A stretch of 63,801 nucleotides of DNA, the filler included, from Hausera hauseri (taxonomy: Eukaryota): assembly GCA_046269625.1 (NCBI GenBank). It is 11 parts of 11 records of this genome, joined end to end, with 100 filler letters (N's around TTAATTAATTAA, not from the genome) between each part and the next. Parts side by side here need not be neighbours in the genome. Positions count along the whole stretch, not along the records: positions 7,535 to 14,491 come from JBJURY010048441.1; 10 more parts are not named here. One strand, written 5' to 3'. Of this stretch, positions 8,490 to 51,194 are shown piece after piece; position 1 is the stretch's first letter; the number at the start of each line of letters is the position of its first letter. The position numbers and the translations under genes were made by a program. A model generated the notes under the pieces. That model was not told where the DNA came from, did not search any database, and was given only the letters and a program-made list of their open reading frames with translations.

Positions 8490-8998
8490 ATGTTGACTTA
8501 TTTGACTAGAGCACCTGCGCTGAACTATATATATTAGATCGAAATTGAAAGAGACACTTCATCGACTATAGCGTCGATTTGCTGCGCAATTCGAACAAAG
8601 AAATTACAATCAGTTCCGTGACGTCAGTATTGATATATCTGCTGTATTATTCTACGAAACTTTCTCGATTGACATTGCCATTGATCGCGTGATACGTGTT
8701 GTTCATTATACTGTGAGTATTGATTTGTCTTAAATTTCTTACATAGTTTTCATCGGCCCTTAAGGCTGATTGGTGAGCACCGTAAGAGATAAAATCTAAC
8801 GTAACTTATATAGTCACTAGAAGATTGTTAATTTCTGCACAGGACACGGCAAGCACCACAGGCATTATAAAATCTTGACACATCAACTGGGCACATTCGT
8901 TTAACGAGATCGTTAAACCGAATTTGCAATAGAATATAAACTTCAAGTGTAAATTGTTATATAGAGGGAGACGTTAAGGGCCACCCAAAATATAATAT
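8490..8998 (+). mobile_element. Probable 5' LTR (left boundary uncertain)
   Basis: Non-coding block directly upstream of the PBS; no second LTR copy in the contig to confirm boundaries. Confidence 0.35.
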
Positions 8999-8999
8999 T

Positions 9000-9017
9000 T
9001 GGCGACCCTAACAGGAC
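9000..9017 (+). promoter_or_regulatory. Primer-binding site, tRNA-Arg-like
   Basis: TGGCGACCCTAACAGGAC differs at 2 of 18 positions from TGGCGACCGTGACAGGAC, the complement of the invertebrate tRNA-Arg(TCG) 3' end used by 412/mdg1-type Gypsy elements; ~300 nt upstream of gag. Confidence 0.7.
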
Positions 9018-9315
9018 AGTTTGTGCCTATCTAGACTTTTAGAGTAAATTAAAGACATATCGGCGATCAGCACCAATACACCGAGTAATTGAAAAGCTTA
9101 AATTCAGGGATATAAGTTTTCAGATTGAAACTAAAAAGGATAAAATAAGAGACGAACATTGATAACCAAGTAAACGATAACGACAAATCACCCATACGAC
9201 AGACACGCAGAATATATATAGAGCTAATTCTGAAACTAGAGATAAAGTAGTTAACGGTAGATTTAAAATTCCTCAGCCTAAAGATAAACCTGATAGAAAT
9301 AAAATAGACAATAAT

Positions 9316-11121
9316 ATGGCAGCAGATAATCCACCAGCAGCGCAGAAGCTGGACATCTTTACGTTTGATTCTCTAAACCTGCCGGCATATGACTGTGATC
9401 CGGACGGATTAAATGACTTCCTAAGGACTTATAAGTTGCACGCAGAAGGTGCTAGTCTTCCTCCTGAAGTAATGATAAAGCTATACTTAAAGAATTTAGC
9501 CGCTGATGCTTATAGTGAGCTCACAAATGAAGAAAAGAAATCTTGGTCCTCCCTAGTAGGAGCATTGAATCGGAAACTATTGCCAACGGTAACGCCGCAA
9601 CAGAAACTCATGGCCTTTCAGAATAAAGTACAACAAAAGGGTGAATCAGTAACCCAGTTTGCATTTGCATTAAAGAATCTCGCTAATAGTTATGTAAGCA
9701 CTTTGAGAATAGCTAATGTAGCTAGAGCCAAAACAGACGCGGAACGTGAAGCCGCAGAGAAAGCAACTCCGCCAGATTTAGACGTCATGATGACGACACA
9801 GTTGATTATTGGGATTTGGTCCCGAGACTTAGTGAAACAATTGATTTTGGCTATACCTGATAATTTTGAGAGGACGCTACAATTAGCCCAAGATTTAGAA
9901 ATGGCATTAGAAAGATATACCAAACAAAATGATAAATACGAAAGTAACAATGACCGTAGTAATCGCAACAGAAATGATAACCGAGATAATAGACGATTTA
10001 ATGATAATAATAGAAGCCAAGGGTTTGATAATAGGAATCAAAATGCTTATAGAAATCAAAAATATGACAATAGAAATTCTAGTAATAATCGAAACACATA
10101 CAGCTCGTATAATAAGTCAGGTTACAACCCGGACAGGAACCAAAGTGGTTATAACCAAGGTGGTTATCGATCTAATAATAGCCGATATACGGATAGTCGG
10201 AGTAACGATAATAGAGATGATGGAGATAGTAGACAAACTCCACAAAGTCAAAATAAGAATATAACCAGAGCAAAATCGCCCGTAAACGAAGATGGTCGAC
10301 AAAGGATTGGCCGTAATGGAAATTTAATTTGTTATACATGTGGCAAAGAAGGACATATTGCTAAATCATGCCCAAATCCCAGAAGCGTTGCATTTACGGA
10401 GCCGAACAAAACAAGTATGATTAAAAACAACCTAAAAGCCATATACGGCAAAGGAGGTGAGATAAGTATGATAATTGAAATGCAAGATCTACGCAGATCT
10501 GTAAGAAATTTAGGTGAAACCACTAACCCTCACGTAACAAAAGCTAGGAAAGAGTATGAAGAAAAGTTACGACTAATGGAAGTTTATCATGGATTAACAG
10601 AACCAGAAACCGAGGACGAATATGCATTAGCACCAAACAGCATCAATATGGCACGCAAAAAGCCTTTTCCACAGGGAACAGCTCAGGCTGAGAAACCAAC
10701 GACATCTCAAAACGTAGATTTAGACACGGAAGTAGTATCCTTGACACAAGACCCAGAGGAAACTACATATGAGGTCGAAAGTGAATTTATCGGGCCTTTA
10801 GTGCTCAAAATAACTAAGAATAGAGACAGAAGCCCATCACTTAAGAGAAAGTCCACGGATCGCTCTCGATCCCCCATTAAAAAGAATTTGGTGGAAAAAG
10901 AAGATTTCTCTACTATTTTAAAAGATGACTCAATCGCGGATCTTTCTGTTATGTCTAAGGAAATACCAGAAACGCTGGAAACACCAGATGTAGTCAACGT
11001 CAACTACGAAATTAACGAAATTTGCCCACTTCCCACTAGCGAGGAAGAGACACAAGATAGCGATAATTTCGACCCAAAAAATGGAAGATCCGACGATCAT
11101 GGAAGAATGCTGATGAATTGA
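9316..11121 (+). CDS. gag: Retrotransposon Gag (capsid-like domain, N/D/R-rich linker, CCHC knuckle, acidic tail)
   Basis: QQKGESVTQFAFALKNLA (major-homology-like region), CYTCGKEGHIAKSC zinc knuckle; intact 601-aa ORF. Confidence 0.9.
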   Translation: MAADNPPAAQKLDIFTFDSLNLPAYDCDPDGLNDFLRTYKLHAEGASLPPEVMIKLYLKNLAADAYSELTNEEKKSWSSLVGALNRKLLPTVTPQQKLMAFQNKVQQKGESVTQFAFALKNLANSYVSTLRIANVARAKTDAEREAAEKATPPDLDVMMTTQLIIGIWSRDLVKQLILAIPDNFERTLQLAQDLEMALERYTKQNDKYESNNDRSNRNRNDNRDNRRFNDNNRSQGFDNRNQNAYRNQKYDNRNSSNNRNTYSSYNKSGYNPDRNQSGYNQGGYRSNNSRYTDSRSNDNRDDGDSRQTPQSQNKNITRAKSPVNEDGRQRIGRNGNLICYTCGKEGHIAKSCPNPRSVAFTEPNKTSMIKNNLKAIYGKGGEISMIIEMQDLRRSVRNLGETTNPHVTKARKEYEEKLRLMEVYHGLTEPETEDEYALAPNSINMARKKPFPQGTAQAEKPTTSQNVDLDTEVVSLTQDPEETTYEVESEFIGPLVLKITKNRDRSPSLKRKSTDRSRSPIKKNLVEKEDFSTILKDDSIADLSVMSKEIPETLETPDVVNVNYEINEICPLPTSEEETQDSDNFDPKNGRSDDHGRMLMN

Positions 11122-13925
11122 GGAAAATGAGAATTAGATCTCATGATCCAGCTGTACTCAAAAACAATTTAGAAAGGCTTAAGCAAATAAGTGAACAAGT
11201 CGATATATCCGGTAAAGAGCAACAATTTGCAGAAAAATTATATTAAAGTCTAAAATTTTGGAGCGAAGGGAAGTTCGATGAGGCAATTGAAGTAAGACAA
11301 CCGGAAGAGGTGTCGCCCGAGATGTTAGTAAAATGGAAGCACGAAATAGAATCGTGGATTAAAAGTGGAGTCTAATTTTCAGAAGGATGGAGTAAAAATG
11401 AAGATAGCATTGAGGTGAAAGTAGCTAAAGCTCAAACGTTGTTAACCACACTAGAAACTAATCGAAAATTAAAAATAGTAGCCCGCAACTTAGAATATAT
11501 AGTGGATGGAATTCGATATGCTACGACTAACCACCTTAGGGAAAAACCAGTTAACAACCGAAGCGACACGGATTTAGAAATGTTGGATATAGACCCGGTA
11601 GATATACCTCCTTTAATAGAAATGATAAAAATCGCATTCTCTGGACCTAAATTGTATAAGAACTTAGAGAATCGTATCAAATCAGAAAACAAAAAGAGGT
11701 CACAAATTAATAGTTTGAAAAACCGAATTCTATTTATGGACAACGAGGAAACCAAAACTGTAATAAAAGCCTGCATCATAGAGTCCGACGAATACAAGGA
11801 CGAATTTAACTATGTCAGTCAAATAATGAGGTTTATAAAAGGACCGGATGACGAGTTAAAAGATGCGTATAAGATGCTAGATAAGGCCATATTGGCAAAA
11901 CCAGTAATCGCTAACCAACTATCAGAATGGTCTGAATTGATAACAAGACTAAGGAAATTAGTAGAAGACCGCAGAAAAGAGTTTCCAGAAAGCGAACCCA
12001 CGATAAAAAGGCAATTAGAAGAAAGTGCACGAAACCTAGATACCATACTAGCAGAGATAGATATTCGAACACGGTTCGAAGCATTGCGACGACTGAAATT
12101 TATGAAGAAGAAGCAAGAAGAAATTATATTAGAAGAAATATACAGAATGATAGAGGAAACTAACTTTACAGAAAAGCGGAATATGACTTGTGATTTTTAC
12201 TCAAGATTAAGAAATATTCGATGGGAAGGAATCCAATATTTAATAACCAAACCTGTAGACGAAATTTCAGTACAAGATATTGATACTCTAGACATATTTT
12301 CTGATCATAGAGTATTCATAGAAGATGCATTGAGATTCATACATGAACCCCGCAAATGGATGTCCGGGACGGATCAAAAATTCCATACTGAGTTGATAAA
12401 AATTAAAAATGACCAAAGCCTCACTTCCGACGAAGCTAAATTCTTAAAGAAACTACTTAATGCCATAGATCCTGATTCGAAAATCATCAACGAGATGTAC
12501 AAACTAGCTTATTTACTAGTAGAAATGGCAGAAATTAGCGATGAAGAGATAAGGCAACTACTACCTAAACTACGACAAACCGAAGAAACATGTATAAAAA
12601 CTAAACAAAGAGAAGTAAGGTTAACCGAATTAATGAATGAGTTCCAGGAATACCGGAACAAATATGCCTTTACCGAGTCAGAAATCGAGCACAAATACGA
12701 GTTTGTACAAAGATGGCAAAAGGATATAATCATCGAGTTAACAGATTATCATCAGAAAGGACTTATTCCCACCGATGAGTTTGGTGAATTATTGAAACTA
12801 ATTCGACATGCCTGTGGAAACGGCGTAGGTTTCCGTACCACACAGATGAAAGAAATACAACCGAAATTGAAAGAAATTAGAGAAAATGTACGGAGAACGA
12901 GTATAGCACCAATAGATTATGGACCGCCAGAAGTTGATAATGACCCCGAATGGGATGCGTACTTAGATGCAATAAACGTAGAAAATCCAGTAACTCCAAT
13001 ACAACTAAACGAAGTGGAACCATGCCCACAAAGCAGGAGATTCAATGTGGAGATGCTTCTGGACTCAGCGCTAGCTGAAAAGGATTTAATTGAATTAGTT
13101 AACGTAAATATTACTGAAACTAAATTAAGACAACTTATCCCGACTCTAACTAGATTATCTTGCGAAAATACAGTTTACAGTACCTTACCAAAACTTTTAA
13201 TAAAAAGTTATGCGAGAATATTAAGGGCTAAACCTGAAGTAATGATGAAAGTAAAAATATCATCCGAATGGATGGATGAGAAAGAATGTGAACTAACTAC
13301 ATATTTATATGTAAAGGACGTAAGAGAGTGGCTAATAAATAATGGTGGTACGAACGAGTTAAATTACAGATTCTACTTTAGAGGTAGAATACTGGATGAA
13401 TTAGAACAATTAATCGATGTTGGGATTATACCCGACGAGACAAATAGAATAGTGGCAATAATAACTAACGAGCAGACTAAAGAAGAAGCCACCCGTAAAG
13501 CAAAAACAGAACAGTGCGTAGGACAAATCATGGGAGTCCGAGACGCCGCCATGTATTTCGAGTACTTGCAAACCGATGAGGACAAAGAACAATATGACAC
13601 GAACTTAGTGCCATTGACTGTATCACCAATGACCATCCAAAAACAGAAACGGCCCGTACGTAGGCCCAAGAAAATCCGAGAAGATGTTGATTATAATGGA
13701 GAATTAATCAGAGAATTGAGGCAGATGTCAATTCCTACTTTTAGCACACATAATGAAAAACTAAGCGAATTGATGAGGAATCTGATACGAATAGTAAACT
13801 CTTCGAGCCTTCGAAGATATATATTAGACTATAAAGAAAAGGCGATATTTAACGCAGATAGGACAATGAGAAGTGCACGGTTCAAGTTATCAAAAAGCAA
13901 CCTGACAGGCGAAGCAGTAGTTTAG
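11073..13925 (+). CDS. Large unknown charged/helical ORF in the -1 frame of gag, containing a ubiquitin-like domain (~13242-13463); not Pol
   Basis: The frame of ORF 11415-13925 extends back to 11073 with only two TAA (11244, 11373). No D(T/S)G, YxDD, RNase H or integrase motif seen. Ubl-like segment: MKVKISSEWMDEKECELTTYLYVKDVREWLINNGGTNELNYRFYFRGRILDELEQLIDVGIIPDETNRIVAI. Confidence 0.7.
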
Positions 13926-13931
13926 AAAATC

Positions 13932-14491
13932 ATGGTGGAAAATTCAATAGAAGAATTGAGGAAGGTATTGCTCTATTTAGCAATCAAGACAAATCCCAGC
14001 CGAGAAAATGAATTTAATCGGGCTATTAGCTTGGCACGAAAAGCAGCAAGGAAATTACCCTGTGAGGTAAATTGGATTAAAATATTTGATAAAGAAGAAG
14101 ATAAGAGAGCCAGTGGTAGTATACTAGAAGACGCGTTACGGAATCGGACGGCGACAGACAATAATAACCGGAAAAACGAATCCAACTGGTTAATCAGCCT
14201 ACTTACGATAATGATGCTGATGAAACAGATAGGTGCCGTCACTGTCTACGATTGCGATAAATTTAAGCTCGGACAAAAATACTCATTAATGAATCTAGAA
14301 GCGTGCGAAGACGCCAGACCCCATAAATTAGAAACAAAGGAAAAAAGTTATATCCTCTACCAACAACAAGAATTAATATCCTTGGACGGAATGGAGTGCA
14401 TGCTTAAGCGGTCTCGTAGCATTTTTCATTGTGGATTAATGTATGGACATTCTTCAATAATCAAACCAACGACCCCTCTGATTCCAATGAA
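13932..14491 (+). CDS. env: Chuvirus-like (class III fusion) envelope glycoprotein N-terminus, truncated by contig end
   Basis: Signal-peptide-like WLISLLTIMMLMKQIGA, then VYDC....YSL.NLEAC...ILYQQ...EC.LKRSRSIFHCG.YGHSS, matching the YDC...SL...C...Q...C......CG..H pattern of chuvirus glycoproteins; same frame as the upstream ORF, separated by one TAG. Confidence 0.75.
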
Positions 14492-17590: not shown

Positions 17591-18937
17591 TTGTCCCTTC
17601 TGTTTCTGGATAATGAAATCAGAGTTATCACAGCAGGTAGCTTACCTCCAAAATTAACAGGAATTTACCTGAATGAAAATCCTCTGACTACAATCGAAGA
17701 CTCGGCATTTGGTGAATCTTATTCAACGCTGACACAAGTGTCTTTATCAAACGCTAACTTCACAAAATTCCCTGATGCATTTCGACGTCTGACAAGACTC
17801 CATTCATTATCCATCTCTGATAGCCATATACAAGATTGGAACGACGACGCTATGAAGATTATTGGTCAAACGGTAGAGGAACTTATCATTAGCAACGTCG
17901 GGTTAACAAAATGGCCGACATGGGTCGAGAATGTCTCTCAACTGCCAGATCTGACTTTAACTACAGGTTATATATCAGACATACCAGATAACGTTCTCGA
18001 TAATGTGGCCGATAGACTGTTAGCCCTTTACCTTCAGACGAACAGACTAAAAGCTATTCCTAAGGCCTTTTCAAAGTTAACATCTCTGGTGACTTTGCAT
18101 CTTTACGAGAATAAAATCACGGACGTGGCAGGGCTTCCTCAATCCAGCCAGTTCTCTTCCTTGATGCTGAATAGCAACCAGATATCAAACGGCACTCACC
18201 TCCAACAAGTTCTCTTCCTTGATGCTGAATAACAACCAGATATCAAACAACACTCACCTCAGCGACACGATACGACCTTTTGGAAACTCCATGATTGAAC
18301 TGGGTATTAATGACAATCTGTTGACCACAATTCCAAATTTGACTTTTCTTAGACACGTGAGCAGTCTTGATTTATCTCATAATAAAATATCAGATCCACG
18401 GTCAGGATCTGTGTCGCCAGTTCTATCTTCCGTTGATCTGAGCCACAACTTGCTTCCATCAATTCCTCAATTTATGTTACCATTACAGTTTATGTATGAA
18501 TTATATCTGCCATAAAATTCTATAAGACAGATCCGAGGAACAGACTTCCCACCATTTGTAGTGGTAGCAGATCTCGGGTATAATCTTATAACAGAGTTAA
18601 CTGACGAGAGTTTTCCACAGAATTCTCAACTAAAAGTCTTACACTTAAACGACAACCCAGTTACTAACATTTCCAATCTGGCATTCAAATATCTGGGTTT
18701 CCTGACAGAATTGTACCTACAAAACACCAAACTGACTCGCCTACCTATGGCTCTTGGTTACATCAATAACCTGTCCATTTTCAACATAGATGACAACAGA
18801 CAACTGATTTGTACATGCCTGGAGAAAAGTTTACAAACACAATGGACATATCCATGTTGCTTAGCAACGTTGTAGGAAACTGTGGCCACGTTAGTGTTTA
18901 TACATTTTTCTCCCAATTAAGTCAAAATTGTCCTTAA
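17591..18937 (+). pseudogene. Extracellular-type leucine-rich-repeat protein with LRRCT cap, disrupted
   Basis: Many LxxLxLxxNxI repeats; C-terminal LICTC...GNCGHVSVYTFFSQLSQNCP*. A 58-bp duplication (18151/18209) shifts the frame, TAA at 18513-18515, another shift near 18860. Confidence 0.88.
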
Positions 18938-32741: not shown

Positions 32742-33772
32742 ATGCCTTACGTACTTACATCATAGATATACGCTGTTATGGTTTTTATTTTAGGTTACTG
32801 TAATTGTAATGCTAGGTCTGCTGCAGTAGAATATGAACGGCGTTACCCTAATAGAAAGATTCCAGATTCCAAAACAATTTGTGGAACTTTCCGTACTCTT
32901 CGGGAAACAAGATCACTACCGAGTATTCGAAACAATTATGAACGTACTGTCCAACATGACGATGATATTGTTATTAATGCTGTTCATCGTAGTCCAGGCG
33001 TAAGTACACGACGTCTTTCTAGGCGGATAGGAGTTTCGCAGTGGACGGTGTGGAGGTCACTGAATCCAAATAAATTTTATCTATTTCATAAACAAAATAT
33101 TCAACATTTACGGCCAGGGGATGGTCCGCTTGGCTTGGAGTTTTGCAACTTTTTGAATATTAATCAACAACCATACAAGCGTATTTTGTTTACGGATGAG
33201 GCACAATTCACTCAAGATGGTGTCAACATCTTGCACAATGAACACTCATGGGCAGAAGAGAAGTCTCATGAGGTAGTGGAACAGAACTTTCAACGCCGAT
33301 TTAACGTCAATGTTTGGTGTGGCCTTTTGAACAATCGACTGATTGGACCGTTCATATTACTTTGACGCATAAATGATGAGTTCTGTTTGCACTTCCTTCA
33401 AGAAGAGTTGCCACAGCTGCTTGTGGATGTTCCTTTGTATCTCAGACGAGATTTGTACTTCCAGAATGATGGAGCACCTCCCCACTTTTCACGTTCCGTT
33501 TCCGCTCACTTAAATAATGAATTTCCTGGACAATGGATTGGTCGTGGAGGGCCTCACTCTTGGCCACCAAGATCACCAGATCTATCTCCATTGGATTATT
33601 GCGTTTAAGGATGGATGAAAGATATTATCTACAAGACAAAAGTAAAATCTCGTGAAGAATTAATTGCCGCATTATGGAAATCATGGGAAATTAAGAAACG
33701 CAACAAAAGCCGTACACAAACGTACTTGAAAATGTATTGATAATGACGGCTACATTTTTGAACATCTATTAT
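32742..33772 (+). mobile_element. Tc1/mariner transposase relic, DD41D (rosa-type)
   Basis: N-terminal HTH (NARSAAVEY..RYPNR), ILFTDEAQF, VNVWCG, FQNDGAPPH...WPPRSPDLSPLD with 41 residues between the second and third D; internal stops. Confidence 0.9.
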
Positions 33773-35479: not shown

Positions 35480-36335
35480 GTCGCGGTCTCGAAGGGAATG
35501 ATAAAATCATTTATTGGAAATGTGAAGTGGGCAGTACAATCCATGAAACAATATCAATCCCCATTAGCAATCCCTACAAGGAACATGCTCTGCTGATTGC
35601 TGCACAGCACCACTTGTCGACCCAGGAAGTAAGAAGAAGACAAGTCACGGGAACGTTGAATAGCAGTAGCTTGTTGCTGACTGCAGTTCAGTTGCTAACA
35701 TCTCAGAATGCTGATGCCGAAGAACAAGCGACCAAGGCAAGCAGGAAGATCTTGGATACGGTACGCAATGAGAGATCATAACGTCTCCTTATCGTATTAT
35801 TCAGAAATACAGCAATAAAGGAAATTTAATTGATTTTGAAATCGAATTCGATTCATCATATTTCAGCGGACCTTTACAAATCCAAATACCAGATTCTTTG
35901 ACTTATTCCTCCACGGATACATCGAAAAGTAGTCATTCAAATGGTAAACACAAGAGTATTTGTTGTTGATATTTAGACACAAAAAATCCCGAAATGAAAA
36001 CGATTGATATTCCAATTAAGTTCTACGCTCAAACGGCGGGAATCTATCCATGTAATGTTGTATTAAAGGGTCCCGATGATGTACGGGTTTATAAAATTGA
36101 ATGTACGGTTACACCTGAGGGTCATTCTGCACAGTTGTTTTTCAAAATACCGTTGCAAGACTCTATTCTTCAAAACATACCCATTGTCAATAAGACGAAA
36201 CAAGATTGGCCACTCAGAGCAACCATTTCCAGTACATCTGCCGCCTTTGTCGGTCCAGAAAACATAATGGCTAAGGCCCTTTCTGTTTCGCAATATCCGC
36301 TTCAATTCAAACCAACAAAAGAAGGAAAAGTCAAT
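35480..36335 (+). CDS. CFAP47: Cilia- and flagella-associated protein 47, internal/C-terminal exons with short introns
   Basis: EHALLIAAQHHLSTQEVRRRQVTGTLNSSSL; GIYPCNVVLKGPDDVRVYKIECTV; LQNIPIVNKT..DW; FVGP; YPLQFKP. Exon boundaries approximate. Confidence 0.75.
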
Positions 36336-36956
36336 GTATTATTTATAGTTTTATTTTTTGGCATTCCAATAATTTTCATGTGGAGTTACTTATTAAATAT
36401 TCCAAATTTGAATATAGATTGTTGTAATAGATTGATAGCTCAACTATTTTAATGTGCTCACTAAATTTAATTTTCGGGTTTAATTTGATCGTTTAAGGTT
36501 TTATTTTTTGTTTCTTTTTTTGCACATGAATCCGTAATTAATGGTTATTTATTTATTTTTTTGACAACCTATCTATTTTTCCGATTTTTGAGTATTTTAA
36601 TTTATCTGTGATGTTGAATTTTGAGAAATTTAAATTTTGAGATTTTGCTTTTGATATATTTTGTTATTAGTAAAAAAATTTTTATTTTGTTGATTTGGTT
36701 AATCTGAATATAAATTTTAATATTTTGTAAGGTAGAACCTTACAATGTATAAGGGGTTTTTATATATGAGGAATCCATTNNNNNNNNNNNNNNNNNNNNN
36801 NNNNNNNNNNNNNNNNNNNNNNNTTAATTAATTAANNNNNNNNNNNNNNNNNNNNNNNNNNNNNNNNNNNNNNNNNNNNTCAGCAGGAGAATGAACGAGT
36901 CCATCGGAATTAGTTACATTGCAATGTTGCTTGAAACAAATCCGATCTGCTGACTG

Positions 36957-38111: not shown

Positions 38112-41100
38112 ATGTTGGCGAAATTAGCAACTCAACTGAGGTACGTACCCGCTCATGTGCTCAACCGGTTAAAAATCGAAGTGGAGAAATTCAAACACCA
38201 CAATTGCAAAGTGAAATATTATGCACTTGCAGAATTTGAGAATCTGCATGGTGACAGGAAACAATGGTACCTGTCACATCGTGCAGATCCATGTTCCAAA
38301 TATTTCATTGCCGACATAGGCGAAAAAGTGGACAAAAAAATTGCAAACTACACCGAAAAGGGCAGTGGTTGGCGAATAATAAAAATTGTCACTCTCGGTT
38401 TTACTATAACAAAGTCGAGTGATATAATTTACCTGCCTGAATGTTCATTCATACGACATCTGAAGCTCTAAAGCACTCTTATGCGGTAGTGAATGTAAAA
38501 AACACGGACGATGATTACTGTTTTATTTACAGTATTCTGGTGGTATTAAAATATGACGAAGTGGACAGACATAGTGCATATCGTACAAGTCTGTATCGGC
38601 AGTATTTTTCCGAATTGCAATTCGACGAAAACTGGATGCAGAAGAAACTAAAAACCATTCTAACATTTGAACGGCGTAATTCGACGTTTTCAATCAACGT
38701 GTTACTGTACATTACAATAGTTGAAATACCTGCAGACAAGGAAATTTACAAGAATCCACATGTGGATATAATCTATCATAGTCGGAACCCGTATGGACGC
38801 ACAGTAAATTTGTTATTGTTGAAGCAGGCAGAAAATTTTCATTACATGGCCGAAACAAATTTGGACCGACTGTTGAACATGGATCACCATCAGTTTGTCC
38901 AAAACAAATACGTTGTAAAGGGTGTCTTACATGTCTCTATGGCTTCAGATCAGAAACCACGTGGGAAAAACATGTGACGCTGGGCAGACAGAATGCATCA
39001 GAAACAACAATGTACGTCATGCCAATCAAAAAGGAGCTGCGATTTAGTGACTGGTATAAAACGGGCAGTCCAGCATATGTGATATTTGCTGATATTGAGG
39101 CAATTCTATCACGGCACGAAGTACACGATCGAAAACATGTTCCAGTTGCCGTCGGAATATTGGTTGACCCAATAAAAGCTGCAAGTCAACCGCAGTATTA
39201 CATGTTTCACGGCTGGAACTGTGTGTATGTGATTTCCTGCATCATTTGGAAACAATATCTGAATCGTAAATCGCACCGTGGTATCGCAATAACAGTGCAA
39301 AACCCCTGATTTGGACAGATGAAGATGAACGCCTGACATTTGCAGTCACAGAGGAATGTTACCTGTGCCACAAAATATTACCGTTTGATGCACAAGAACG
39401 AATAGTACCGGATTACGACCATTTTACCGGTTGATACTTGGAGCAGCATGAAACACATGCAATTTAGCGAGGTGTGTGCGGCCATTTCTACCGATGATCT
39501 TTCATAATTTTCGAGGTTATGATTGTCACCATATACTGAAATGGGCCATCAACGGATTTCCGCACTGGGAACTGTCCATAATCCGAACAACAATGGAGAA
39601 GTGTCCGTTTCTGTCAGCATGCATAAACCGGTTCCAGGTACGCTTCCTTGATTCGTTGCAATTTCTCAATGAATCACTGGGGAAGCTGGTAAATGCCTTG
39701 CCGGATATGCCGATAACCTCAACACAGTTCCCCACATATAATGCACGTTGCAAAGGCATATTTCCATATGACTTTGCAACATCATATGAGTGACTCAAGA
39801 CAGCATAGAAATTACAGCCGCGATGGACAGGTATCGCAAAGGATGAATACCGGAAAGCACAGAAATGTTGGATAGAACTCTGCTGTAGAAATATGCTGGA
39901 TTACATGCTACAGTGTCTTAAACTGGACGTATACTTATTAGCCGATGTGTTCCAAGCGTTTCGAGCAAAAGTGTTGGTTGAAGATATGCTGAAGCCACTC
40001 AACTTTTATTCCATACCGGGAGTGAGTTAGGCGTCAGGTCTAATGTCACTGGATCGAGACATTGAGCTTCTGCAAGACCCGGAAATGTACCGGCTGTTTG
40101 ATGTTGGTATTCTCGGTGGCATGACATTTGTCAACAAACATCAGGTCCGTGCAACCGATACTATATCACTACCGTATATTGATATTAATAACCTGTACGG
40201 CTGGGCGCTTTCGCAACCCTTGCCGTAGGGTTTATTCGAATGGGTTGTCGACAGACAATATGTGGACGATATAATGGTCAACCTACCATGAGCAGACATG
40301 GCAGACTCAGTCGGATACCTGATGGAGGTCGATTTGGTGTACCTGATGAGCTGCATGACGTTTTGGACGATTTCCCGGTCGCACCACTTATCCAATGTCC
40401 GCCAAGCTCAAAAGTGAAGAAACTTCTCATGACGCATGAACCGAAGCTAAATTACGTGGTCCAAGGCGTACATAAATGGAAATTCGGAGAAACGAGCCAC
40501 AGCTTGTACAAAGTTCGAAAAGGACTACAAGGAGCTGGAAAACAATTTCCCGTACGGAAAAACAGTGGAGAATCTGAAAAAGCGGCTCAATGTACACCTA
40601 TGCAATAGCGAAAAGCGGTTAGTCACGTACAAGAGTAAGCCGCAGTTTCGGCAGTCAATGCACATTGCCGATGGTTTGGTTGAGATGCTGTTAAACCGGA
40701 AAGAAGTCGTTATTGACCGACCAAGTTACATCGGACAAGTGGTATTGGACGTGAGCAAGTTGCGGATGTATGAGCTACAGTATCGCGATTTGGTACATTA
40801 CCATCAAATGTTTGATTTCTGTGATATTAGTATTGTTGCAGGTGACACAGACAGCTTTTTCTTGCGGCTGAAAAAAGTCAGTCGCAAAAAAGTCAATGCA
40901 GTCAGATGGATTACTGGACACGTCCAACTATCCACCGGATCATCCGTTGTATGGCAGTGAGATCGCCAACAAAATCGGCTGCTTTAAAGATAAAAGTGAA
41001 GGTCGTGTCCAATATCGGAATGGATATTCCTACGCTCAAAGTGCTACAGTCTTCTGACGGACTGTGGACTGAAAATGCGGAAAAAAGGAGTCCAGCTGAG

Positions 41101-41293
41101 ACAGACGGAAATCAACCACGGTGATCATCACCGTATCTATGAAGAAGGACAAACAAAGGCTGTTGTGTTACAAATGATCATCCGATCGATTGAGCACCAG
41201 CTGTATACGGTGATCAATACAAAAGTCGCTTTATCATGCAATGATAAACGTAAGTGGGTGGGGCGAAATAAGAGTTGGAAGTACGGACAATGA
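38112..41293 (+). pseudogene. polB: Protein-primed family B DNA polymerase (pPolB)
   Basis: GSGW, VVNVKNTDD.YCF, IFADIE (Exo I), FHNFRGYD (Exo II), FLDSLQF, KGIFPYD, LKLDVYLLADVF, YIDINNLYGWALSQPLP, YGKTVEN, GDTDSFF, LDTSNYP, KGV; many frameshifts and stops. Confidence 0.95.
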
Positions 41294-41491
41294 CGTTTGG
41301 AATAAAACACGCATGAATTCGATGTAGACGATACAGACAGATCAAATTACTGCGACAATTCATTGTGATTTGTTTGTTTTGTATAAATAATGTATATTAT
41401 TCGTTGTTTTTGCCTTTTGTTTTATTATAATTTAACGTATCTATTTAACTTAATGTGACAATAAACAATATAAAAAAGTCAATAAAATTTA

Positions 41492-41991
41492 TTAATCATC
41501 ATAAGCTAAAATCAAAAACAAAGTAAATCCAATCAGGGTAAACTTTCCCAGCTTCCATATTGGTGATTTAATGCCGTGCAGATCCTTGTATCCTTTCAAC
41601 TTCAATGTTAGATGACCTTTAGCTCCTTCTGGTAGCAAAACGGCCGCTGCTGCTACTGCTGTTTCTCCCCCATGTGAACTGACAATTTTCGCCATATTTC
41701 CTTTCAGAAAAATCGACGATGTGCCTCAGATATCGTTAGTCAACACCAAGTCACTGTCAACTTTTCTAATTGTATCTTCCATTGTATCCAAATCATCGTC
41801 TCTCATTTTTTTCACCAATAGGCCATATTTCACCAGTTTATTTTGACCGTTTGCATCAATGGCAATTGAATAGCGTTGCGCAGATAATATAAGTTGTATC
41901 CATTATACAACCAGAAATTTCTATGCGAATATTCGCTGCACCTTGGCTTTTTTGACAGACGGTCACTTGCGGAATTATTTTTCAAATTCAT
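41492..41991 (-). pseudogene. Unknown Polinton ORF, possibly an ssDNA-binding protein
   Basis: Broken ORF ending ...GHLTLKLKGYK..GIKSPIWKLGKF; SSB/OB-fold resemblance is only an impression. Confidence 0.25.
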
Positions 41992-42150
41992 TGTTTAAAG
42001 AAGACAAGCGTGAAGTGAAATTGCATCTCTATTTATATCAAAGGTTTGTTATCATTGTAAACAATAGACATTTATTTTTTGACTATTGTCTCATATCACA
42101 ATGATACAAATTACCTCCACGTCATTGAAGCCTATGTTCCGTTATTAAAC

Positions 42151-42629
42151 TCAATCGTAATAAACGTGTACAATTTCCATTACAGCACATTTACATTCTG
42201 GGCATTGGTGGGTTGTTACTTGGGTAGTGGAACACATTTGACAAACAACGAGATGGCCGCTCATTAAGAATACCGTATCCACTTGTCTTTGTTTACATAG
42301 TACACACATAAACTGACAGTCTCGTACTTTGTCCATTGTTTTCTCTTTCAAGTTCGTTAATTCACCGCGTACCTTTTCAAAAGTACTAAAGTAATTTTAT
42401 CATAAAATCGGTGAATGTACATTTGATTTAACACAATAATTAGATTTTCTATAGAGCTGCAACCTGTTGCTGTCATCAATGCTACTGACGTTAAATCCTC
42501 TTTAAATCCAAAATCACCTGCTGCTCTCGCAACCAGATCACTATCAAGTACTTTCCACCATCGTTCCAAGTCTGAAATTGATAATCCATCAAAATTTTCC
42601 AATTGCGTCAATTGATTAACTATTTCCAT
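42151..42629 (-). pseudogene. IAP-type UBA-like + C3HC4 RING protein lacking BIR domains
   Basis: RING CVLC...VDTVFL.SGHLVVC..C......CPEC...V; upstream LVARAAGDFGFKEDL....CSSIENLI resembles the cIAP/XIAP UBA; the two parts are separated by a stop and frameshift. Confidence 0.7.
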
Positions 42630-42732
42630 GATATTATTTCCTACCTATATTCATAGTTTTTGAATTATTCAACTGACTAACACGGCGGACCTTATATACG
42701 GAAAGAAAAAAGAAACAGAGAAATACATTTAT

Positions 42733-43220
42733 TTATTTCGATAAAATATAGTCGATACAAAGGCGTAAACATTTTATGTAAGCACATTGCCGTCCGCGAT
42801 CACTATACGGACATCGGATACTGTCAGGTACCATCGCCAGCGAATTATTCGATGTTGTTAAATACATCGTCATTCGCAACTCCGAAATTAGTGAATGGAG
42901 TTGTGTAAACTTTTGCAGGCCAATTTGATCTTTAATGTAAAATATGATATTTTCAATGTCAAAACGATCACAAATCTCTTCCATAATACATGGCACACAA
43001 CGTTGAATTGCCTTCATACCAATGAAGTCCACGACGATGTCGAAAGAAATCCATTTGTAATTTTCGCTTTTTCCGTCAGGTCTTTCCATACAATACCGGG
43101 CTTGAATATGTACACAAGTGGTTAGAAAATGTTACCGAAGTCCATAATGCATAATTCCTTTACTATGTACCGGACATTATCATCTAGGAAAGCTTCAATA
43201 TCTATAAACCCTGACGCCAT
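42733..43220 (-). pseudogene. DEDD-like nuclease commonly found in Polintons
   Basis: MASGFIDIEAF...YIVKELCI...YIFKP..W..L....K.TN...IFYIK...C..CA.IKC; internal TAA and frameshift. Confidence 0.65.
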
Positions 43221-43303
43221 TACTTAGCTGGTACAAAATCATTTTTTATTTTTAACACAAGCAAAACAACTAACTATTATTATTATTATTATCATAACAA
43301 TCA

Positions 43304-43790
43304 TTAAACATAGGTGGTTTTGTCCATATCACCAATGCCTAATTCTTTGCGTTCATTTCGTGTCGATTCATTGACGCAAAATAATTTCCATTGTTCAGGT
43401 GACATTACACTGAATTTTGCCTCTTCACAGCGAAGAAAAACAATTTGTGTGACTGCACGTCCTTTTGAAAAAGCACACGTTGCCGGATAGGTTTTCCACC
43501 AACACTTTAATTTTAGCACAAAAGTCTGAATCAATGACACTGCCGCCCAACAACCGTCAGTCCAAGCTTTGCCACTCCGCTTTTCGATAACAGTTGACCG
43601 TAGTAACCCGGTGGAATCGCCAATCGAATCCCAGTCGTTATACATTTGATTGTGCTGTCCGAAACTGTCGTATTGACATTGGAAAACATCGTTGCCTGCA
43701 CTATTTGCTGTAACACGTCTCGGTACAAAGGTATTTTCGTCTGTTAAGATAATCTTTACATCATTTATTATCCTTATTTTTATGCCATTC
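43304..43790 (-). pseudogene. dut: Trimeric dUTPase
   Basis: PRRVTANSAG.D (motif I), TTGIRLAIPPGYYGQLLSKSG.A..GLTV (II), D.DF..KIKV (III), GRAVTQIVF (IV), R.E.GIG (V); frameshifted. Confidence 0.88.
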
Positions 43791-44047
43791 CTAAAATAAC
43801 ACGTATATTTATACTTGTTAATTGGGTTAATGAAAAAAGAACAGTAAAACAATATATATTGGTAATTAAAATGCGCTTCAGCCCCACGCTAAATCGGGCT
43901 TTTGAAACCGGCTTTTTCCTGGTATCCTTGCAATTCAATATTCAACCGACACTTTAATCGACCACCATCATCATCAAGTACATGAGATATTTCGCGAGCG
44001 ATAAAATCAAATAATTTCCTTTTCTGCACCGGCAAAACAACACATTG

Positions 44048-45064
44048 CTATTGCACGGTCGTTTCGTTCAACTTTAAATCCACATTTAATTGATGTATGG
44101 CATCAGAAAGTTTATCCAAATTTTCACCCGAAAGCCGTTTAACACGATAGCGGTACTTGGGTACACATAGAGATACGGGATCATTCAATGAGATCAGTAC
44201 GGGCGTTTGCAGAAAATACATTTCATACTTGAGAAGAATTCGTTTCGGTAAAAATGTCTGTGTTTGACACGATAATTTTGATTTTTGTATACGTATTCCA
44301 ATCATTGCATTTTGCCTTTTTAACGTCGGTTTTGATGATTTCTGAGCAAGTTCCTTTTTCGTTTCCAGACAATCGCCCTGCAAACAATTGCCATTAGAAG
44401 GTTTTTCTAATTGTTGGACAAGTTCTGGTTTCGCTTCCAGCAGTTTGATATTAGAATTATCCTTTTTGTAGCCAAACAACCACGACCAATCTGAACTTTC
44501 ATCATTGGCATCAATGAGTAGAATCGTTTTGTCGACGTCTTCCATGGCAGTAATGTCTGAATAAGCATGGGAATGGTATTTATAGTTTGTTGTTGTGCAG
44601 AGTACATTATTTGGATTCACTAAAACATGTACGTAGTTTTTTATTTGATTAATAATCAATTCATAGTCCACTATCCGAATACTGAGTACAGCAATTTTTT
44701 CGCTGCTAACCACATTGACACAAAGTGGGCGAAACGATGTCAGTGTCAATGCAGGAAACAGTTCGGGTTCATATGTACATTCAGTGGCCATTGCTAATTT
44801 GAACAGATTGATTGTTTGGTAGTCTAACTGAGTCGTTACCGTTATTGATTGAATTTGGTCAATAACAATTCCGAATGGTAATAGTTTACCAGCTGTTATT
44901 GGTTTGCGACAACCCATAATACGACACTTTCTCGATTAAAATATAATTCACGTGAAATCCGGTGGACATTTGAGGACATACTGCCTCGGCTTCCATTGAT
45001 TAAAAGGTAATGTGTTAATGTCACACTCGGTAACATGTCCGCGATAGTTGATATTAGCTAACAT
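44048..45064 (-). pseudogene. TATA-binding-protein-like gene (two TBP repeats, ~44630-45064) in frame with an unknown C-terminal extension
   Basis: MLANINYRG...IIF*SRKCRIMGC (repeat 1; two stops near 44940-44950) and IQSITVTTQL...INLFKLA....YEPELFPALTL...PLCVNVVSSEKIAVL (repeat 2, cf. TBP YEPELFPGL). Confidence 0.8.
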
Positions 45065-46852: not shown

Positions 46853-49800
46853 CTCATAAAACATCTGCAGCCTAGAATAAAAGAGCAAATACAAAAGGAT
46901 TTAAAGAAAATAAATGAAGGAAAAATTCCCAAAGAATTAAAATTGTCAAAACTGATAAATACGTATACTGAAAAGAATTGTTTAAATAGGCTAAATGAAG
47001 ATGACAAGGATAAGCTTATTAAAGAAATTTATAAGATTCGAGGAAAAGATCTGGTTACCTCTCAGAAGGAATCAAGATATTAAATAGATTACGAAAGACA
47101 AGAAAAATTAAACAGGCGAATTGATGACATAATTGAAGGAGTTATTGGTCGAAAATTCGAACCACCTCCTATCATAATTAGTAGTGATAGTAGTGGAACA
47201 CAAACCCTTTGTGGAAAAGATGAAACCAAGCTCATCAAAGAAAATGAAAAAGTCGGTATTAAGAAATTCATCGAAGAAGGCCAGAATCTACTTATGACTT
47301 ATAATAATGTATCTACCAAAAATGAGTATTTAGACAGATTATGTCTCCTACTAAAAACCAAGAAAATGAAGAGAGAATATAAAGAACAGTTAGAAGAAAT
47401 TCGAGCTGAAATGGAACTATTACTAGACCGATCATATGTATCCGAAATAAAAATTGAATTGAAGAAAATCAGTAATATCCTGGATCAAAATTTAAGTGAA
47501 AAACAGAAGATTTTCTGGACTGAACAAAAGGAAAATTTGGAAATGGCAATGCAATCACCAATTACTTTAGAAAAGAGAGAAGTAATAAATGAAATACGCG
47601 TCAAATCAAGTCAAGTAATGATAACTTATTTATTTAAGATTCTGAAAAAAAATCATTATGTAAAAGATTACTTCAAAATGAAGTCATAAAATAATCTGAG
47701 CATCTCGCAGGAAGAGTTAACACCTTTATCAATAAGTTGAAAGTTCTAGGCATAAAAAGTACCGAAGAAAATGAAAAGGAATTAACAGGGATTCTCAATG
47801 AAAGTAACGATTTGCACCAGTGTTTAATTGATGATATTGATCTTGATGAAGAACCACAACAATTATTAGAAATATTAATCTCAATTTGTAGACATCATAT
47901 AGATGATAAAATAACTGATGATGGATATCCTCCTATGATACCTCCTTTAACCATTGATGAACTTACTGACGGAATAAAAACGACTAAAGAATTCGCCAAA
48001 CGGTTAGAAGGAATAAAAAGATCGCCAGATTTCGATAAGTTTACGGAAAAAGCAAGAAAAGCAGAAGAAGATTTTCAACTTGATTTCTCAGAAGTGATTA
48101 ATAAAGAAAATACTGTAATTGCAAGTGACGAAGAAAGTAGTTTGAAAAAACGTATGGAAAAATTAAAACCACCTAGATACCAGGAATTATTAACAAAAGA
48201 AGAGAGAAGAAAGCAAAAAAACAAATAAAATATCCAGATATGATTGACAGCGAGATAAATAAAACTACTGAGAATATACAGCCAATAAAAAAACAGAAAA
48301 AGCCTGCTACGAAGAGAATAAGACTGTACAAACCAGAAAAGCCGGAAAAGAAATATTACGAATGCCAGCAAAGATGATTTTAAGGACACAACTGAGTACG
48401 AGACACAAGACAGTTTTGGACAGGATATGAACATTAATGATTTTCTTGAATATGACTTAGATACAATCCATCTTGATAGATTTAGAGACGAAGAAATAAA
48501 TGAAAATGAGAGAATAAAATCAAGACCAACTCTGATTGAAAGAATGGCCGCTCCACAAGAATTTCCAGAAGATCTAGATGACTTGCTAATGTCTTACCTC
48601 AATAAAAAGAATAATATTTATGAAATTGAAGAAACAGCAGAAGAATTAGCTAAAAAACCAGCTGATAAATGGAGGTATAATAATACGCCTCGAACCTTAC
48701 TAAAATTATTAGGAAAATACTATTTAAATGAAAAGAAATTTATGAATCAAAAAATAACAGTGCGACCTTGGATTGACGATAGTTTCTTCCCTAATCTAGA
48801 AATGAGTATTGATAGTCGAGTTGTTGGTCTTGAACAGGCAATCAAATCTCAAACTCAGAAACAAATGAAACATCTTAGAATTATATATTGCGATAGAATT
48901 TTGGATCCAGAAGAACCAACAACTGAACTAACTCCAGAAGAAGATAAACGGAAAATTATTAAAGTCAAAAATATAGCACAAGAAGAAACCATTATGGGAA
49001 TAAAAGATCAACAAGGGTAGTTGAAACATCTCCATGAGACACTAATCGAAAATTCGTCACAGACATAGCAGCAGATGCTTACAATGAATTGACAGATGAA
49101 GGAAAAGATAAATGGAATAACGTACAGACCGCCTTTATTGATAAGTTCTATCCTACCTTATCCCCACACCAACAATTGATTAAGCTACAAAACAGATATA
49201 AGCAATATGATGAATCTGTTACACAATATCCCTATGCTTTACGACAAATTGTCTCTCAATACGTTAAAGCTGTCCGACTAGATACAATAAAAAGAAAAAA
49301 TAAATTTTATGAAAAAGAATTAAATACCGATATATTATTGCTCACTCAATTTTTGAATGGATTAAGTCCTGAATTGAAATATGAAGTAGAGGTAAAATAT
49401 CCTACTGATTTTGTAGATGCTTTAAAATCGGCCCAAATGATAGAATCGTTTGCTCCGCCAAAGCGACAGAAAATCGCTAACCGATTTTTTGAAAATGATC
49501 AGAGAAATTTTGACTCACAGAAATGATAATCGCAGAAATGATCAAAGAAACCGAAGAGATAATGAAATTGATTTTGACCGAGATAGCTATAATCGAGGAT
49601 ATAATAAATCAGATTCAAGAAACTTTACGGACAATCGAAATCAGATGCCAATAAAGCCAGAAAATGTTACTCAATACGAAAAAAGTAATGCTCCTAGATT
49701 TTAGCACAGAGTTTTATTTAGTCCAGAAACAAAATATCGAAGAGATGGTAGACAGGATTTGAATAAAACCGGTCGAACGCCTACATGTAATCAATGTAAC

Positions 49801-51194
49801 AAAACTGGACATTATGGCAATTCACGTTAAACTCCAGCTCACGAGTTGCCTGGACCAAATGAGAAGAAAAGAAGTGCCATAATGAACAAAGTTAAAACTT
49901 ACAATACTCCAGAAGAATTTTTAAAACGAATTTCTGAGTTAACTCCAGATAAAAGAAATATTACAGCTAACGTTCTCAGAAAAATGCATGCTGATGTTGA
50001 TCGAATTCTTCGAAAATATAATATTGATACAAGTTATAGTTTGCCTCAGTGCCAAGGCATTTTTGATGATTTAAATAAAAATGAACCTGTAGCGGAACCA
50101 GCTCAGGCAAAACGTATTACTGAATCAGTTATCATTGAAGCTCGAACCGAAGCTAAGAATAGACTTTTACTTGGTGAAGAACATTCTGAAGTAGATGAAT
50201 TTATGCTTGAATGTTTCCCGGTTGATCCTCAAGTCGCTGCATGTGAACGAGCTCGAAAAGAATCCGATAAAGAAAAGCCGACTTTACCTGATCAAAAAGA
50301 CAAATTTGCTCGATATAAAATACCAAAAAGAAAACCTGAAGAAGTTTCTAAATCACCAATCACAAAATGAGATGTTGAATATGAACAAATTCACAGAAGT
50401 TATAAAATGCCAAATGACGCAGTTCCATCTACATCCAAATCAGAAGCGCACCCACAAAGTCCAGAAGTTCAGATTATTGAAAGAGATACTATTTATGAAG
50501 TTGCCGATAAAGAGCTCATAAAACATTTTCAGCCTAGAATAAAAGAGCAAATACAAAAGGATTTAAAGAAAATAAATGAAGGAAAAATTCCAAAGAATTA
50601 AAATCATCTAAGCTGATAAATACTTATACTGAAAAGAATTGTTCAAGTAGACTAAATGAAGATGACACAGATAAACTTATTAAAGAAATTTATAAGGTTC
50701 GAGAAGAAGATCTGGTTACCTCTCAGAAGGAATCAAGATATTTAATGGATTATAAAAAGCAAGAAAAATTAAAGAAGCAAATTGATGACATAATTGAAGG
50801 AGTTCTTGGTCGAAAATTCGAACCACCTCCGATTATAATCAGTAGTGATAGTAGTGGAAGACAAACTCCTTGTGGAAGAGATGAAATCAAACCCATCAAA
50901 GAAAATGACGAAGTCAATATTATAAAATTCATTGAAGAAGGCCAGAATCTACTTATGACTGATAGTAATGTATCTACCAAAAACGACTACTTAGACAGAT
51001 TATGTCTCCTACTACTAAAAAACAAGAAAATAAAAAGAGAATCTAAGGAACAGTTAGAAAAAAGTCGAGCTGACATGGAACTATTACTAGACCGATCATA
51101 TGTATCCGAAACAAAAATTGAATTGAAGAAAATCAATAATATTCTGGATCAAAATTTAAGTGAAAAAGAAAAGTTATTTTGGACTGATCAAAAG
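46853..51194 (+). mobile_element. Decayed relative of the contig-2 element (Gag, degenerate knuckle, unknown ORF, Ubl), tandemly duplicated with ~3662-bp period
   Basis: 46853-47530 is a diverged copy of 50515-51194; Gag at 49064-49830 and Ubl at ~48742-48966. Confidence 0.8.
49064..49830 (+). pseudogene. gag: Gag fragment homologous to 9316-11121
   Basis: AADAYNELTDEGKDKW...PTLSPHQQL..LQN...ESVTQY.YAL vs AADAYSELTNEEKKSW...PTVTPQQKL..FQN...ESVTQFAFAL; DGRQ precedes the knuckle in both; CNQCNKTGHYGNSR has its last Cys replaced by Arg. Confidence 0.85.

Follow-up and report, generated by a model that had tools for sequence, protein, structure and literature searches.

A highly repeated LTR-type retroelement, probably represented by its 5' half, that carries a ubiquitin-like cargo and a gB-type env in a Hausera hauseri assembly

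Gene content from the LTR to env

The window, that is the whole stretch of 63,801 nucleotides analysed here, was composed of 11 contigs of the Hausera hauseri assembly joined by N spacers. The element under study lies on contig 2 (7535-14491) and reaches its final base. Its features are all on the plus strand and comprise a primer-binding site (PBS), gag, a cargo region with a ubiquitin-like domain (Ubl) and a gB-type env; together they likely represent the 5' half of an LTR-type retroelement that is highly repeated.

The segment 8541..8999 was taken as the probable 5' LTR from its position ahead of the PBS; its left edge is not fixed, it does not end in CA, and no second LTR copy was found on contig 2. 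In the bins as far as 8694 the contigs of run X1 had a summed depth of 0.9-43, which rose to 2674 across 8695-8926 and to 12336 across 8927-9158. Skip-type joints of 121-158 bases were observed in the same run within 8584-8929, which suggests LTR length variants. The PBS follows at 9000..9017. Its first 12 bases are similar to tRNA ends assigned to Arg in supplement file 2 of PMC13524379, where a few entries sharing the 8-base core carry the label Lys or Asn; as originally predicted, the site is likely of the tRNA-Arg type.

The gag gene (9316..11121, 601 codons) is open from the ATG at 9316 to the stop ending at 11121 and encodes a capsid region, an N/R-rich linker, one CCHC knuckle (10330-10371) and a long acidic tail. 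The knuckle matched zf-CCHC in Pfam (E 1.7e-6) and the protein matched Retrotrans_gag below the cut-off (E 0.0028), confirming the intact CCHC Gag reported previously. Word-index protein searches with Gag retrieved no longer relative among 3,915 candidates and no near relative among 6,962.

The end of gag overlaps ORF2, which lies in the -1 frame and extends for about 950 codons up to env. In-phase slippery-type heptamers are present at 11073 and 11076 within the overlap (11067..11121), and an ORF2-frame ATG is found at 11127, 5 bases behind the gag stop. Heptamers of this type occur at 6 of the 1,444 codons here, giving a chance of about 7% of finding one in the 18-codon overlap. The first base of the heptamer at 11073 was different in about two thirds of the placed contig depth, and the 12 windows examined downstream of the heptamers contained no stable hairpin (z between -1.2 and +0.5). 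Frameshift and restart are both possible ways of crossing the offset. The pol frame of gypsy elements usually starts at a -1 offset after gag.

No protease (PR), reverse transcriptase (RT), RNase H (RH) or integrase (IN) match was obtained for ORF2 in a Pfam profile search, and the six frames of contig 2 contained no PR, RT or HHCC motif, only one bare DAS tripeptide, so that the observation of about 950 codons lacking a pol motif was upheld. The first part of ORF2 (11067..13241) encodes a charged, probably helical cargo (38% E/K/R/D/Q) which had no Pfam match at the cut-off and occupies the position of the Smc-like region of the planarian element Burro. A sequence search with ORF2 among 1.84 billion representatives revealed a single relative, P0001 (40% over 150 aa, E 6.7e-20), a 150-aa singleton from a 2,157-nt contig. 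Comparison of the whole ORF2 with the Atlas gave scores under 0.8, to be read as a lead only, and the one match in a search of PDB sequences was rejected as chance. No relatives were matched in the viral contig collections (0 of 8 and 0 of 5 stretches) or in prokaryote genomes (0 of 391); two matches among 222 metagenome stretches were rejected, both being 20-residue matches to the knuckle. Three stops (11244, 11373 and 13923), rather than the single TAG noted originally, were found in 11073-14491, indicating that this copy of the element is decayed.

The cargo is followed by a ubiquitin/SUMO-like domain (13242..13460) that has no C-terminal Gly-Gly. An 83-residue segment containing it scored 0.90-0.94 against Atlas clusters, including those of PF11976 (Rad60-SLD) and PF00240 (ubiquitin). 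The segment alone found no Ubl among its three PDB sequence matches, while five of the eight matches of a two-sequence profile built with the corresponding region of contig 9 were Ubl (best E 0.072). A model of the domain, of low confidence (pLDDT 49.7), showed the beta-grasp order, and Ubl chains topped its VIA list (best Z 5.7, rmsd 3.0, 68 aligned residues), a result rated as middling. Each of these lines scored weakly and all agree, pointing to a real Ubl between Gag and env.

Between the Ubl and env lie a linker and a predicted helical region (13461..14186) containing the stop at 13923 and an ATG at 13932. No Pfam family was found there at E<=10, and a single-sequence model of 13080-13922, which covers the first half of this region, had a pLDDT of 33.7. 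Burro carries a BCL2-like motif in this position, and by eye the region has a BH3/BH2-like look.

The env start (14187..14491) comprises a predicted internal signal peptide and about 90 ectodomain residues. Its segment 14187-14234 contains the most hydrophobic 15-mer of the three ORFs, and the sequence matched PF24664 (Monjiviricetes_fusion) above the cut-off (E 1.7e-9, profile positions 6-95 of 653), in support of the chuvirus-like glycoprotein N-terminus proposed from the sequence. By eye, the pattern is the same as that of six Schmidtea env rows in the accessible part of supplement file 3 of PMC13524379. No matches were found among PDB sequences, and a word-index protein search gave no longer relative among 481 candidates. 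Contig 2 ends at 14491, 101 residues into env.

Repetition of the element and its relative on contig 9

The stretch was matched by 11,115 of 15,501,002 contigs in run X1 and by 1,021 of 9,551,390 in run X2; run X1, possibly the source sample, is not an independent one. In run X1 every bin of 8695-14491 had a summed depth of 719-27,626, against 0.9-43 in the flank, although depth summed over contigs does not measure copy number, and 'high copy' is used here in a qualitative sense. Half of the placed X1 contigs were less than 90% alike to the stretch. The ORF2 bins were as deep as those of gag and env in both runs. The element is a family, not a one-off, and ORF2 is not an unrelated insertion confined to this copy.

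Variation among the copies was informative about the reading frames. Nearly all of the placed contig depth differs from this copy at stops 11244 and 11373, and both stops are therefore private decay of this copy. Four indels were listed across 10800-11450, but the part 11001-11450 had none, and the gag/ORF2 overlap is spanned gap-free by one 238-nt contig of run X2; a missing indel at the junction is not proof, as unitigs may break at indels. Among the 40 variants listed of 150, 18 of 27 variable sites in 11083-11375 fell on the third codon position in the ORF2 frame (P 4e-4). Since no indels were listed there, a contig bridges the junction without a gap and third positions are favored, the -1 offset after gag looks family-wide and the ORF2 frame appears to be coding upstream of its long open part. 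Along the whole element, the 40 variants listed of 1,276 included 10 in gag, two non-coding ones, which were dropped, and 28 in ORF2, distributed over third (11), first (9) and second (8) positions with no clear codon bias.

Contig 9 carries a decayed distant relative (46853..51194, +) with a tandem duplication of about 3.66 kb that includes mid-Gag, a knuckle remnant, cargo and Ubl, and a 680-nt direct repeat at 90%. At 48991-49062 the Ubl region joins straight back into mid-Gag, producing the 3.66-kb tandem unit. The Gag of contig 9 is 33% identical to that of contig 2 over 139 aa (E 1.6e-19), and the score of the Ubl pair was attained by 4 of 2000 shuffles; the contig 9 Ubl also matched ubiquitin (E 0.0045). 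The two ORF2 regions had no match at E<1. The knuckle remnant and the cargo start of this decayed copy are in the same frame. No PBS, env or pol was seen on contig 9, and its three forward frames had no Pfam match at E 0.01. The original prediction had used this relative to argue against a single rearrangement, and this holds in that ORF2, with its deep bins in X1 and X2, is not a single-copy insertion; contig 9 lends no support to the loss of pol, on which it says nothing because it has no env.

Comparison with known elements and position of pol

Burro/GYPSM1 are giant gypsy-like LTR retrotransposons of planarians present in thousands of copies, in which, according to the accessible part of PMC6431247, a Gag with CCHC knuckles is followed by Smc-like, MATH, Ubi2/SUMO-like (PF11976) and BCL2-like regions, a mononegavirus-like env in frame and then PR, dUTPase, RT, RH and IN. 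The accessible text of PMC11410931 mentions Burro for its size only. The element shares with Burro/GYPSM1 a Gag with Retrotrans_gag and CCHC matches, a long accessory region, a Ubl between Gag and env for which the PF11976 cluster was among the Atlas matches, an env with no protease motif between it and the PBS, and very high copy. On the other hand, Gag, cargo, env and pol of Burro form one ORF of 4,873 aa with two or three knuckles, again from the part of PMC6431247 available, while the element has one knuckle and a -1 offset after gag. MATH, BIR, ankyrin and BCL2 regions as in Burro were not detected in the element by Pfam search. Burro is further characterized by the PR-dUTPase-RT-RH-IN order downstream of env, an RT of the Burro clade and a total length over 30 kb; the comparison made here is one of gene layout. 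The element works like Burro as far as it is visible, and it is not filed as Burro because it departs from the single ORF, the BCL2-like feature is unconfirmed and any pol would lie outside the contig.

The same env type, also placed after gag, is found in the GAG-ENV-POL gypsy elements (errantiviruses) with HSV/gB-type env of flatworms, nematodes and bryozoans (PMC13524379, Chary and Hayashi). The accessible part of that paper, where the words 'ubiquitin' and 'Burro' do not occur, describes no cargo of about 950 codons lying between gag and env, and none of the nine flatworm elements seen in its supplement file 2 has an Arg PBS (eight 'none', one 'others'), in contrast to the Arg-like PBS found here. 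Anakin, a mosquito BEL/Pao element cited in the accessible parts of PMC12440569 and PMC13524379, carries a captured chuvirus glycoprotein of the same class as the env of the element. Troyka, as described in the accessible part of PMC12440569, was rejected as unrelated. The element has one knuckle and an env directly after the cargo. BEL/Pao Gag proteins, by contrast, typically have three knuckles and the env of these elements follows pol.

We favor, with a probability of about three in four, a Burro-like element whose PR, RT, RNase H and integrase would follow env beyond the contig end. No pol is visible here because the contig breaks off after 101 residues of an env whose profile spans 653 positions, and the absence of pol is uninformative because about 550 of these positions are missing past the contig end. 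In such an element most ribosomes would make Gag alone, and a minority would enter the -1 frame, either by slipping at the A-rich heptamer or by restarting at the ATG behind the gag stop, to produce a cargo-Env-Pol protein. Signal peptidase would cut the internal signal peptide, so that the cargo stays in the cytosol, the Env ectodomain enters the lumen and Pol, following the Env anchor, faces the cytosol, and tRNA-Arg would prime reverse transcription. Having no Gly-Gly end, the Ubl would bind rather than be conjugated, acting as a binding module for partners in the host ubiquitin system and not as a modifier. This mechanism is derived from the Burro precedent and from membrane topology, and the parts, the gene order up to env, the high repetition of every part and the family-wide offset are its observed component. 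A Burro-like element is supported by the visible gene order, the PF11976 match, the GAG-ENV-POL elements of PMC13524379, the repetition in both runs and the third-position bias in 11083-11375. The points against it are that no pol has been linked to the family, that two frames and one knuckle differ from Burro, that the additional domains of Burro were not detected, that the 28 listed ORF2 sites have no clear codon bias, that the heptamer at 11073 varies and that no stimulatory hairpin was found.

The original prediction had offered two readings, a pol-less element and one with pol downstream of env, and considered the architecture unrecognised. The second is the likely one, but its gene order is already published, for Burro/GYPSM1 and for the GAG-ENV-POL errantiviruses of PMC13524379, and the pol-less status put forward in the headline lacks positive evidence. 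In a pol-less, non-autonomous enveloped family, gag, cargo and env would be kept and RT and integrase borrowed from an autonomous partner sharing LTR and PBS. Some 5.5 kb free of pol motifs after the PBS, a cargo in the -1 frame, the usual place of pol, and high repetition with coding constraint would all fit, but a pol placed after env would lead to these observations as well, given that the contig ends inside env; moreover, the architecture described in the accessible part of PMC6431247 explains all the visible parts, and our literature search found no invertebrate precedent for a pol-less family. We consider this reading unlikely, and it is just as doubtful when spelled out as a highly amplified family in which the gag/pol frameshift yields a fusion of the ubiquitin-like cargo with a class III fusogen and infectious particles obtain RT and integrase from a helper.

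Improbable, and more so than the loss of pol, is a mixed family in which autonomous copies with pol behind env coexist with many internal deletion or tandem derivatives, gag, cargo and env being separate cistrons and not one polyprotein. At two places (11119/11127 and 13923/13932) an in-frame ATG lies no more than 6 bases after a stop; this, the rearranged derivative on contig 9 and the many skip-type joints in run X1 are in agreement with such a family, but the stop at 13923 is not among the 40 variants listed of 1,276, and decay is a simpler cause of the stops at 11244 and 11373, which are private to this copy. That this copy alone carries ORF2, as an unrelated insertion or through chimeric assembly, as the scarcity of ORF2 relatives in databases and its failure to align with contig 9 outside the Ubl might suggest, is very improbable and already largely refuted by the depth of the ORF2 bins in both runs, by contigs that bridge the gag/ORF2 junction gap-free and by the same Gag-cargo-Ubl order on contig 9.

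If pol follows env, the element would represent a compact lineage resembling Burro, with a frame offset that separates Gag from cargo-Env-Pol. Unlike the single ORF of Burro, this offset would fix how much capsid is made relative to envelope and enzymes. Such a lineage would be modestly interesting for how env-before-pol elements evolved, and more so in a host other than a planarian. If pol were truly absent, the element would be a helper-dependent enveloped invertebrate element of a kind that our literature search did not find described.

Other features of the window

A decayed long coding region on contig 6 (28672-32639, -) contains two or three hydrophobic signal- or TM-like stretches and had no Pfam match in three frames at E 0.01; it may be the accessory region of another giant retroelement. 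An ordinary gypsy-type RNase H and integrase remnant was found on contig 11 (58509-60479, +), with an endonuclease VII match further on; it shows no connection with the element.

Other contigs of the window have features that suggest a possible origin in other animals. These are a snail-like LRR ORF (17591-18229), a DUF4817 transposase match (32766-33362, E 0.0005) and a CFAP47-like exon (35970-36449), and more than one animal may be represented among the contigs. Contig 8 (38441-44935) contains fragments with a GIY-YIG match (E 0.009) and a TBP-like match (E 1e-4), adjoined by a Polinton-like polymerase piece.
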